This document shows, in pieces, positions 30,001 through 33,000 of a DNA stretch of 64,000 bases. How positions within the stretch are numbered: position 1 is the stretch's first letter; every line of letters starts with the position of its first letter. The stretch spans positions 806,954-870,953 of the forward strand of contig JBGAON010000001.1 of the NCBI GenBank assembly GCA_044221725.1. Reading direction: 5' to 3'. Source of the DNA: Elusimicrobiota bacterium. Lineage in GTDB: Bacteria; Elusimicrobiota; Elusimicrobia; F11. Made by a program: the position numbers.

Positions 30001-33000
30001 TTTCGATATTGGTCTCGTATACGTCATGGCCGTTTCGGGTTTGTCCACGATCGGCATTCTTATGGCGGGCTGGGGCTCCGCGAACAAATTTTCGATGTTC
30101 GGTGGTTTGCGCGCGGCGGCGCAGGTTGTGTCGTTTGAAATTCCGCGTGTTCTTTCGGTCGTGCCCGTCGTGATGTGGGCCGGTACCCTTTCGTTGACGC
30201 AGATCGCGAGTGCGCAATCCGTTCCGATGGGTGGTTGGTTTCCACGGTGGTTCATTTTCTATCCGATTATTGGGCAAGTCAGTTTCATTGTTTATTTGAT
30301 CACAACGATTGCGGAAACGAACCGCGTGCCGTTCGATATTCCGGAAGCGGAATCCGAGCTTACGGCCGGGTTCCACACCGAATACGGTGGAATGATGTTT
30401 GCGATCTTCTTTATGGCCGAATACGCGTACGTGCTGATCGGCTCGGTGCTGGGCGTGGCGCTTTTCTTTGGGGGCGGATCCCCGCTCTTCCCATTCCTTA
30501 AATTTATTCCGTCGTGGGCCTGGTTCATTGGAAAAACGTTGGCGCTTATCTTTATTTTCTTGTGGTCGCGATGGACCTTTCCGCGCCTGCGCGTTGACCG
30601 TGTGATGGATCTGTGCTGGAAGATCTTTATTCCGTGGACGCTTATTAATATTTTGATCGCGGGTGGTGTAATGCTGTGGAGGAACCACTAATGTTTTGGG
30701 ATTTGAAAAAAGCTTGGCAGGTCGCCGCCGGCACGCTGAAGGGCATGATGATTACGCTCAAATATTATTTCAAGCCGTCGCTCACGTTCCAATTCCCGCG
30801 CGAGCGCAAACCGATTTCCGAACGTTTCCGCGGCGTGCTGTCGTTCCATCCGGAAATCTGTATTTCGTGCGAAATGTGCGTGCGCGTGTGCCCGTCGGAC
30901 GTTATCTCAATGGAATGGGTGCGCAACGAAGAAACCAAGAAAAAGGATCTAAAGTGGTACCAGATTGATTTTGCGAAATGCAACGTGTGCCGTCTGTGCG
31001 AAGAAGCCTGTCCCACCAAAGTGAAGTCCATCCATCATTCGAACGAATACGAAGTGGTGTTTGAAGACCGAAAAGATTTTATTGTGCGTTGGGGGCCGAC
31101 CACACAAGACACCGTTGAACAAGGACCAAAAGCGCAAGAGTGGTACCGCTACATGCCGGACGGCCGCAAAGAGAAAATCGAAAAATCCCAAACCACTGAG
31201 GTTTCCGCATCATGATTCAAACCGCAATCTTTGCCTTCTTGGCCGCTTTGGTTTTGATTCCGGCGCTGTTGGTCGTCACTGTTAAGAACGTTTTTCATTC
31301 GGCGCTTTGGTTGGTTCTGTCGCTCAGCGGCGTCGCCGGAATGTACGCGATGCTCGCCGCGGATTTCTTGTTCGCCGTGCAGTTGCTCGTCTATATCGGC
31401 GGCGTGATGATTCTTTTGCTGTTCGTGGTTCTTTTGTCCGGTAAACCGTCCGATTGGGCCGGCCGCCAGGTGAACGAAAAAGCGTGGGCGGCCGGACTTT
31501 TCTCGGTGTTTCTTGTCTCTGCGCTAGGAAGTGTGGTCATTGATTGGCCTCTCGTTATTGTTGATTCCAAACCGCTTTTGACCACTGGGCGCCTTGGAGA
31601 ATTGCTCGTCCACGGAATGGCGCTTCCGCTCGAAGTCATTTCGTTGGCGCTTGTCGCCGCGCTCGTTGGAGCGATTTATTTTTCAGTAAAAAGGAAATCC
31701 TCATGATGCTGGGCCCCAAACATTTCTTGATCGTCGGTGCGATCATGTTCGCGATCGGCGTGTACGGTGTTCTCGCGCGTCGCAATATCGTTGGTGTGCT
31801 TATGTCGATTGAGATCCTTTTTAATGCGGCCGGAATAAATTTTGTTGCGTTTAATCGATACTTGCACCCGGACGGGCTTTGGGGCCAAGGATTCGTGCTT
31901 TTCATCATTGCGTTGGCCGCGGCGGAAGCTGTGGTGGGCCTGGCGCTCGTGCTCGCCATTTATCGTGGCGCACGCACTGTTTTGGTGGAGCGACTGAATC
32001 TTTTGCAGGGATGAGTTTTAAATCGTTTTTAAATTGGATTCAAAACGATGGGTCCGACAACAAAGGGTCGAAGCAAAACGAATCAATTGATTGGACGGAG
32101 AAGAGACGCGATAACCGACTGGACCTTGCAACAGACAAACCGTTAAGGGTCCATTTGATGAGCGAAGAGGCCGAAGGGAAATTGGCCAGCACGTTGGTCG
32201 CGACGGTTCGGAACGTGAGTGTTCGCGGTTGTGGTTTGGTTTTTGAATCGGCCGCGGATTGTCAGCGTTTGAAAGCAAAACAAGTTTTGTTGGCATCGTT
32301 GGCCGTGGATGATTTCCCGATTCCGTTGCAGGTGGAAGTTGTTCGTTTGATAAATGACAAGGAAGCAGCAATCCGTTTTCGTCCGCCGTTTCCGCGGGAG
32401 CTTGAGAAGCTAGAAAAATTTTTGGAACCCCGCTGTTTGGGGCGGTCGCTTCGAGAGATTGATCCGGCCAAGTTGCAGAAAGATCAGCAGAAAGGGTTCC
32501 GCTGGTTTCAGGGCGTGAATGAAACGCATTTGTTTTCGTGGATGTCTCCGGAGACAAAACAGATTTCGCAGCAGCAATTGGTGTTTCTGGACCACGTGGT
32601 CGAATGGAAGGAAGGCGACGTGGTCCGAAGCGGCATGATTCGCCCTGACGAGCGACGCGCTCGCGGCGAGGTGGGATGGGTGAAATCGGATCTGCTCGAT
32701 TTTGATGCGGTGGCCGACGCGGCGGTGGTGGCGCAAGCGCGCACCATCGTTGAATCGTGTGCGATTGATGGCGACATCAAAAATACGTTTTTGAAGAAAA
32801 TTTCTTAGCAAAGGAAAACAAATGTCTGGTGAAGCACTGCTTAGTCACAGTTACTTGATTGCGCTCGCGCCGCTGGCGGCGTTCGCTATTATTCTTACGT
32901 TCCGAAATGTGCTGGGTTTGCAAGGCGCCTGGGTTGGCGCGCTGGCGATGTTTTACGGATTCGTGCATTCCGCTCTCATTGCGGGTGGGATTTTTACTGG

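Follow-up and report, generated by a model that had tools for sequence, protein, structure and literature searches.

A PilZ-domain gene between nuoK and nuoL in the 11-subunit complex I operon of an Elusimicrobiota family

The complex I operon of an Elusimicrobiota bacterium of the family F11 carries, built in between nuoK and nuoL, a gene for a 265-aa protein in which a PilZ domain with intact c-di-GMP motifs is followed by a C-terminal domain belonging to an unnamed family that occurs also alone or in tandem across several phyla. The gene lies in the window analyzed here, a stretch of 64,000 nucleotides of contig JBGAON010000001.1, and at least five genera, along with three metagenome loci, share its mid-operon position and 4-nt overlap with nuoK. 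Its placement in a respiratory operon could tie lifestyle signaling to respiration; it may also be a mere co-expressed passenger.

Operon context of the PilZ gene

By NCBIfam names, the run reads ubiE/menG, nuoA, B, C, D, H, I, J, K, the PilZ gene, nuoL, M, N, a polyprenyl synthase gene and tatC (Table 1). The embedding claimed in the survey's finding is borne out by the layout: the reading frame opens within an ATGA that it shares with the nuoK stop codon, and closes 13 bp before the nuoL ATG. While nuoA to nuoD and nuoH to nuoN are all present, no nuoE, nuoF or nuoG was named among the neighbors in the run. Searches of the whole genome, which is 94% complete, gave no match to the NuoF family (PF01512) or the NuoG family PF10588. 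The complex is thus of the 11-subunit type, and the survey was right to describe it as lacking the N-module. PF01512 was detected in 3 of the 12 family genomes. The gene set is like that of the 11-subunit complex I without N-module, nuoABCDHIJKLMN with no nuoEFG, in the available part of PMC3144371, and such a complex has been reported for several Elusimicrobia lineages, as far as the accessible text of bioRxiv 10.1101/765248 goes. Unlike other 11-subunit operons, the present one has an extra gene at the nuoK-nuoL junction and family-specific tails on NuoB, NuoC and NuoI.

The GC content and GC3 of the PilZ gene resemble those of the nuo genes, so that it is no recent arrival. Promoter and terminator scans gave no specific signal near it; the sigma-70-like sites, among them the candidate operon promoter of Table 1, total 10 against 8.8 +/- 3.5 in shuffles, which is no excess, and an Rfam scan of the 64-kb window returned two tRNAs only. 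Metatranscriptome contigs (four runs, one study) cover the operon in part, with gaps that carry no weight, and the junction of nuoK and the PilZ gene is bridged by two RNA-library contigs of one study, which does not imply a single transcript.

Table 1. Coordinates of the features in the window
Feature	Position	Strand	Basis and remarks
Candidate operon promoter, sigma-70-like site 5' of ubiE	25704..25732	+	Consensus match only, 11/12
ubiE/menG, quinone methyltransferase, opens the conserved run	26021..26734	+	NCBIfam
nuoA	26728..27090	+	NCBIfam
nuoB, with family-specific C-terminal extension	27101..27691	+	NCBIfam
nuoC	27698..28237	+	NCBIfam
nuoD	28239..29405	+	NCBIfam
nuoH, with N-terminal extension (also in one outgroup genome)	29402..30691	+	NCBIfam
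nuoI	30691..31215	+	NCBIfam
nuoJ	31212..31706	+	NCBIfam
nuoK	31703..32014	+	NCBIfam
PilZ gene with unnamed C-terminal domain, 265 aa	32011..32808	+	ORF, Pfam; GC 0.51, GC3 0.58
ATGA overlap of nuoK stop and PilZ gene start	32011..32014	+	Putative translational coupling; 4-nt overlap in 9/9 other family loci
N-terminal amphipathic helix, residues 2-12, putative membrane anchor	32014..32046	+	Hydrophobic moment 0.67
PilZ domain, residues 30-138	32098..32424	+	Pfam PF07238; Foldseek
RxxxR motif, R32-R36	32104..32118	+	Each residue in 41/42 homologs
(D/N)xSxxG motif, N68, S70, G73	32212..32229	+	N/D68, S70 and G73 each in 41/42
C-terminal domain, residues 127-265	32389..32805	+	Model; without Pfam family
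nuoL	32822..34813	+	NCBIfam
nuoM, approximate start	34830..36368	+	NCBIfam
nuoN	36370..37842	+	NCBIfam
Polyprenyl diphosphate synthase, longest ORF, true start later	37752..38819	+	NCBIfam

A PilZ domain with both c-di-GMP motifs

The Pfam match to PilZ has an E value of 1.6e-5 and scores 25.6 bits, just above the cut-off of 22.5. A full-length model based on 62 sequences reaches pLDDT 87.8 and pTM 0.82, and its best Foldseek matches, among them 4xrn, 4rt0, 8u0i and 5y6g (E 2e-5 to 2e-4), are all PilZ domains, many of them c-di-GMP-bound, with target-normalized TM of 0.61-0.81 against PilZ chains among the ten best matches; the survey's own model had pointed to the same fold. The motifs it had called intact are so: a 16-sequence alignment shows no exception to R32 or R36, and 39 of 42 close homologs, like 46 of 62 sequences of a broad set, have all five motif residues. 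Around F123-P140, the sequence hardly varies among close homologs but does so among distant ones. RxxxR, (D/N)xSxxG and a beta-barrel fold, the traits of a canonical PilZ receptor, are thus all in place; the definition by an RxxxR motif in the N-terminal loop is that given in the available text of bioRxiv 10.1101/2020.02.11.943704. From motifs and modeled fold, we infer that the protein binds c-di-GMP. The genome holds 14 GGDEF matches and 10 other PilZ matches besides.

In combining the barrel fold with both c-di-GMP motifs, the protein is like the PilZ domain of Alg44, PA4608/MapZ, PA0012, YcgR, PP4397/FlgZ and MrkH. It differs from YcgR, PP4397 and MrkH, in which PilZ is the second domain, since here PilZ comes first, after the amphipathic helix, and the unnamed beta-meander domain follows. 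There is no YcgR-N or PilZN domain ahead of PilZ, which starts at residue 30, and the extra domain is C-terminal, so that the two-domain arrangement of YcgR, FlgZ and MrkH is not the one found here. To our knowledge, none of the canonical PilZ receptors or adaptors comes from a nuo operon.

A putative membrane anchor

In the model, the N-terminal segment appears as a helix at residues 3-10 with pLDDT about 57. An amphipathic stretch (moment 0.6 or more) lies within the first 16 residues in 28 of 42 close homologs versus 4.5% of 1313 crude control ORFs, and within the first 20 residues in 28 of 65 distant homologs. Stand-alone homologs carry an amphipathic helix at the C-terminus instead (54/70 versus 13% of controls). 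A terminal helix of this kind suggests membrane attachment, and its switching of ends between the forms suggests that the domain works at the membrane. Some orthologs, including that of the family genome G021, are without the helix, which is therefore not essential; and because the stand-alone homologs bear it at the other end, membrane attachment looks like a family trait that is independent of complex I.

The C-terminal domain

The survey had listed separate folding of the C-terminal domain as a missing check; residues 127-265, folded alone, gave a model with pLDDT 93.1, consisting of short helices, a five-strand beta-meander and two closing helices. It had also described the domain as unannotated, and a scan of 82 of the 140 hits and of 54 members of the alignment indeed gave no Pfam match. 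Against a mark for a clear match of Z at least 8 or a Foldseek E of at most 0.001, the best structural hit, the C-terminal region of a sulfatase, reaches Z 5.8 with an rmsd of 3.1 across 82 residues, and the best Foldseek E is 0.33. When the PDB was searched by sequence, neither the C-domain profile nor P0264 gave any match at E 10, and the ESM Atlas gave no usable match for residues 127-265. A match to 9hnh was not reproduced and was dropped. A likeness to frataxin/Nqo15, considered as a lead, was absent among the 50 structural matches listed and the Pfam matches to 54 members, which does not in itself exclude it.

Among 140 representatives, the domain is fused after PilZ, stands alone in proteins of 120-200 residues, or forms tandem repeats of ~480 residues; one tandem-repeat cluster includes Candidatus Rifleibacterium records. 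It is homologous to stand-alone hypothetical proteins of 120-190 aa from Bdellovibrionota and other phyla, which lack a PilZ domain, lie in other neighborhoods and, where named at all, are all called "hypothetical protein." The two share the motifs WF-x-G, LFxW, EW and TG, and a profile match to P0264 has a probability of 90.9 and E 1.1e-6. The domain also resembles a wider set of hypothetical proteins of 120-130 residues. No cysteine or histidine is found among its conserved columns.

Gain and loss within the family

Orthologs of the PilZ gene are present in 8 of 11 other F11 genomes, and the close homologs carry the source label Elusimicrobia; in a class sample, a distant homolog was found in 1 of 189 genomes from other families. 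All nine loci in the other family genomes show nuoK followed by the PilZ gene with a 4-nt overlap (8 ATGA, 1 GTGA), and nuoL comes next in seven, the other two being cut by contig ends, just as the survey had counted them. Three of three metagenome loci also have the gene at the nuoK-nuoL junction. In the outgroup, nuoK adjoins nuoL directly in 19/19 loci showing both (20 were examined, of which 1 is cut).

The survey's statement that the gene is missing from 3 of 11 genomes stands for two of them. In G035 (96% complete) and G056 (83%), nuoK lies directly before nuoL with no PilZ gene between, and a C-domain profile search found no match elsewhere in either genome; the operon is otherwise intact, and 13 and 14 GGDEF matches are kept. 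The third, G049 (85%), is uninformative, since nuoK itself was not found there. On Nuo trees, G035 and G056 are nested within the family (100% ultrafast bootstrap; SH-aLRT 96), which makes one gain in the family ancestor, with one or two losses, the simplest history; their relation as sisters has support 0 on the Nuo tree. A core subunit would be present wherever the operon is intact, and the gene is absent from G035, G056 and the 19 outgroup loci. Its clean loss in two nested members thus indicates that its product is neither a core subunit nor a required electron-input module.

In 7/7 comparable genomes, the PilZ gene is the least conserved of the run (38-69% identity). Both of its domains are nonetheless under purifying selection (pN 0.19-0.39 versus pS 0.61-0.85 in 4 ortholog pairs), and no internal stops were found in 8 orthologs.

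Complex I subunits beside the PilZ gene

NuoB extends 55-56 residues after the start of its [VI]PGCPP motif in 8/8 family loci versus 35-41 in 4/4 outgroup genomes, an extension of 14-21 residues that is fixed in the family. G035 retains it unchanged, and since the full tail is thus found without the PilZ gene, it probably has another job; NuoC and NuoI also bear family tails, on which the NuoB tail could pack. NuoI, NuoJ, NuoK and NuoL show no clear co-varying change, the G035/G056 pair standing apart from all others at 7 of the 1034 columns, which ranks it second among 45 pairs. In NuoI, the 8 loci with the gene all have K152 and R164, where G035 and G056 have E at both positions; as these two may be sisters and position 152 is K, E, Q, R or A in the 38 NuoI sequences parsed out of 41 of unknown context, we reject this covariation as support. 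A complex prediction limited to residues 26-265 with NuoI, NuoC and NuoD scored 0.00 in both runs (mark 0.32), which speaks neither for nor against binding.

Homologs in other neighborhoods

A motif scan of species-representative genomes yielded 55 loci, 6 from Elusimicrobiota and 49 from elsewhere; a profile confirmed 44 of these 49, the other 5 not being parsed. Queries for Nuo and Sdh matched the 6 Elusimicrobiota loci only; no nuo or sdh genes were seen at any of the 49 others, in flanks of up to 5 kb, many of them shorter. Neighborhood counts from 48 scanned representative ORFs place the Bdellovibrionales stand-alone form 3' of mlaE-mlaF-mlaD in 22 and beside a lolC/E-type permease in 24 of 44 parsed loci, and PilZ-fused homologs 5' of glpX in 7 loci and near an RNA methyltransferase in 4. 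Of 251 genomes of a further phylum, 16 matched, with nuo or sdh within 1.5 kb at 0/16 loci; a scan of 37 of the 63 ORFs there showed the stand-alone form directly 5' of Mrp/NUBPL at 6 of 10 loci, and these mrp loci are close kin. Finally, a homolog of a separate branch follows sdhCAB, after a gap of ~70 bp, in G067, an Elusimicrobiota genome from outside the family; seen in this one genome, the sdh link is a hint. Being kin, the homolog loci count for roughly half a dozen lineages rather than for 65 trials.

Tight embedding is also seen closer to home. Of the 8 other PilZ genes of the present genome that are not glycosyltransferases, 4 adjoin a same-strand neighbor within 12 bp, and one of these is hemmed on both sides by unrelated enzymes. 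Since tight embedding is a habit both of the homolog family and of the genome, it is weak evidence of partnership. The survey had proposed the protein as a candidate link between c-di-GMP and complex I: the stable place in an operon without N-module stands, while gene position is the sole ground for the link, and these controls weaken it.

Discussion

The reading that we favor, with about even confidence, is that of a membrane-tethered c-di-GMP adaptor that is co-expressed with complex I and has its target elsewhere. On the simplest history, the family ancestor acquired the gene between nuoK and nuoL, and if the overlap couples its translation to that of nuoK, the adaptor would be made whenever complex I is made. 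Its N-terminal helix would hold it at the inner face of the cytoplasmic membrane, where the RxxxR loop and the barrel motif would bind c-di-GMP. By analogy with the working of other PilZ adaptors, binding may order the loop between anchor and barrel and so reposition the C-terminal beta-meander, through which the protein could then act on a partner. What the gene gains from the operon is most likely expression, as its homologs do from the mla/lol, glpX and other operons. This is favored by the clean loss in G035 and G056, with the operon intact and GGDEF kept; by the lack of clear NuoI/J/K/L co-variation, the unrelated conserved neighborhoods of the homologs and the absence of a nuo link among them; and by the gene being the least conserved of a run in a genome whose other PilZ genes are also tightly embedded. 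It is weakened by a position and 4-nt overlap kept longer than a neutral passenger might last, by the precedent of a mycobacterial subunit encoded in a nuo operon, by the NuoB tail and the homologs beside sdhB and mrp/NUBPL, and by the analysis having turned up no alternative target.

The precedent is MSMEG_2064 (Rv3143) of mycobacteria, an orphan response regulator that is encoded in the nuo operon of Mycobacterium smegmatis and is a complex I subunit, contacting NuoB, NuoA, NuoC and NuoI and binding a C-terminal NuoB helix, according to the available part of PMC10068793. The present system shares with it a signaling gene in the nuo operon and a NuoB extended at the C-terminus. However, as far as that text goes, MSMEG_2064 involves a receiver domain and phosphorylation in a 14-subunit complex, its gene lies 5' of nuoA, and it is needed for the intact complex, whereas we have a PilZ domain with c-di-GMP as its predicted ligand, an 11-subunit complex, and a gene that sits between nuoK and nuoL and has been lost in two relatives. 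By this analogy, the protein could regulate the 11-subunit complex I as an accessory factor switched by c-di-GMP: tethered by its helix, it would dock where the peripheral arm meets the membrane arm, on the NuoB tail and nearby NuoA, NuoC and NuoI, and c-di-GMP would alter docking and hence assembly or activity. We regard this as possible but distinctly less probable than an adaptor with its target elsewhere. The conserved and putatively coupled mid-operon position speaks for it, as do the confinement of the insertion to the one family that has the NuoB tail and the near-invariance of F123-P140 in close homologs only, as a lineage-specific surface would show; with the sdhB and mrp/NUBPL neighbors and the mycobacterial case, this keeps it a live rival. 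Against it, G035 has the full NuoB tail without the gene, a second family member has also lost it, other phyla provide no nuo link (0/49, 0/16), and the apparent NuoI tail covariation faded in the larger sample. The corresponding picture of a ferredoxin-type 11-subunit complex I with a c-di-GMP-switched accessory subunit, whose C-domain docks and tunes assembly or activity, is to be held just as tentatively.

The Mrp/NUBPL neighbors could alternatively mean that the C-domain is a transient assembly or Fe-S delivery helper for respiratory enzymes, gated by PilZ and not itself a subunit, and NUBPL is called a mitochondrial complex I assembly factor in the text available to us; the homolog after sdhCAB would fit as well. 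This appears improbable, given that the largest group, in Bdellovibrionales, lies between mlaD and lolC/E with no adjoining Fe-S gene, that the mrp loci are closely related to one another, that the sdh arrangement was seen in a single genome, and that no conserved cysteine or histidine is available. The low Pfam score, together with the rapid evolution of the gene and its two losses, might instead betray motifs that are kept with no in vivo response to c-di-GMP, or a decaying insert; but the purifying selection on both domains, the open frames of 8 orthologs, the motifs intact in 39/42 and the genome's 14 GGDEF matches make this most unlikely. Least probable of all is a required structural subunit or a substitute electron-input module. 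The in-operon position and the lack of NuoF and NuoG families would suit such a role, the more so as no designated electron donor has been found for 11-subunit complexes (PMC3144371, part available). Yet G035 and G056 lack both the PilZ gene and PF01512, outgroup operons lack the gene, and no cofactor-binding motif or redox fold was matched; the gene-less operons largely refute it.

Unrelated ORFs lie inside the nuo operons of Rhodobacter and Paracoccus as well. A literature search, in which subscription journals were thinly covered so that absence from print is not established, found no report of a PilZ gene in a nuo operon, and the accessible main text of bioRxiv 10.1101/765248 has 0 occurrences of PilZ or c-di-GMP.

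Should the gene prove a passenger, what remains is a PilZ architecture whose output domain has no name yet is modeled with confidence; this domain also occurs alone, in the conserved mlaEFD-lolC/E setting of Bdellovibrionales and before mrp/NUBPL in another phylum, where culturable relatives may allow knockouts. If, on the other hand, the protein acts on complex I, this would be c-di-GMP control of respiration at the enzyme, beyond the usual targets in motility and biofilm formation, with a second messenger acting directly on a respiratory proton pump of bacteria. It would also provide a first function for an unnamed domain that is spread over several phyla, and a concrete partner to test on 11-subunit complexes.

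Homologs of the C-terminal domain outside the family

The C-terminal domain of the PilZ protein (the C-domain) is also encoded as a stand-alone gene in other phyla. In Bdellovibrionales, such a gene directly follows mlaE-mlaF-mlaD at L097 and 21 similar loci, usually with a gene for a lolC/E-type permease on its 3' side. In one phylum, a gene for the Fe-S carrier Mrp/NUBPL lies directly downstream of the stand-alone gene at 6 of 10 loci. The stand-alone, 123-aa P0264 connects the C-domain with many unnamed hypothetical proteins of 120-130 residues. G067, an Elusimicrobiota genome of another family, has two copies: a PilZ-linked homolog placed between sdhCAB and rpsO-pnp, and a stand-alone one with a CpXC gene on one side and a CCA-adding-type gene on the other.

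Features in the window and elsewhere
Feature	Location	Remark
tRNA genes, two, adjacent	window 2266-2339 and 2343-2414	Rfam
pilT-family ATPase gene and GAF + HD-domain gene	window 18217-19236 and 19367-20656	minus strand
Genes for cysteine synthase, a JAB-domain protein and sulfite/nitrite reductase	window 22405-25677	consecutive
nuoB	window 27101-27691	product with conserved family C-terminal tail
nuoC	window 27698-28237	same
nuoH	window 29402-30691	product with N-terminal extension
nuoI	window 30691-31215	product with conserved family C-terminal tail
PorV-like gene, then sorting-domain gene	window 39647-43829
PilZ-glycosyltransferase family 2 fusion	window 43938-45602	PilZ N-terminal
Second such fusion	L172:3150-4727
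FliG C-terminal domain matches	G000:C3:260942-261259 and G000:C5:184634-184960
mlaE-mlaF-mlaD, C-domain gene	L097:4700-7757
P0264	L106:5157-5528
sdhCAB, PilZ + C-domain homolog, rpsO-pnp	L105:4648-8819	G067
Stand-alone C-domain gene	L104:5565-5966	G067
C-domain gene, then Mrp/NUBPL	L160, L162, L164, L165, L167, L168

Other genes of the window and the genome

The genome that holds the window codes for two fusions of PilZ with glycosyltransferase family 2. The GAF + HD-domain gene, which is c-di-GMP phosphodiesterase-like, adjoins a pilT-family ATPase gene, and the pair lies 5 kb ahead of the first genes of the nuo run. Six PilT-family genes score above the cut-off in the genome, which also has two matches to the FliG C-terminal domain; each falls in an open frame that codes for about 600 residues, more than in flagellar FliG. 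The gene row immediately 5' of the nuo operon suggests sulfur assimilation via a sulfur carrier. Beyond the operon, the PorV-like gene precedes one for a 1080-aa protein matching a T9SS-type sorting domain. An Rfam scan of the window returned no match beyond the tRNA genes.

Extensions of the Nuo subunits

The N-terminal extension of NuoH, of about 90 residues, combines a Pro/Ala-rich start with an additional hydrophobic segment and is shared with the outgroup genome G067. The C-terminal tails of NuoB, NuoC and NuoI are conserved across the family (loci L115, L117-L122 and L108 versus L182-L185), that of NuoB adding 14-21 residues relative to four outgroup genomes; it is retained in G035, a family genome with the nuo operon and without the PilZ gene. 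The three tails may constitute a family-specific module replacing the missing N-module.
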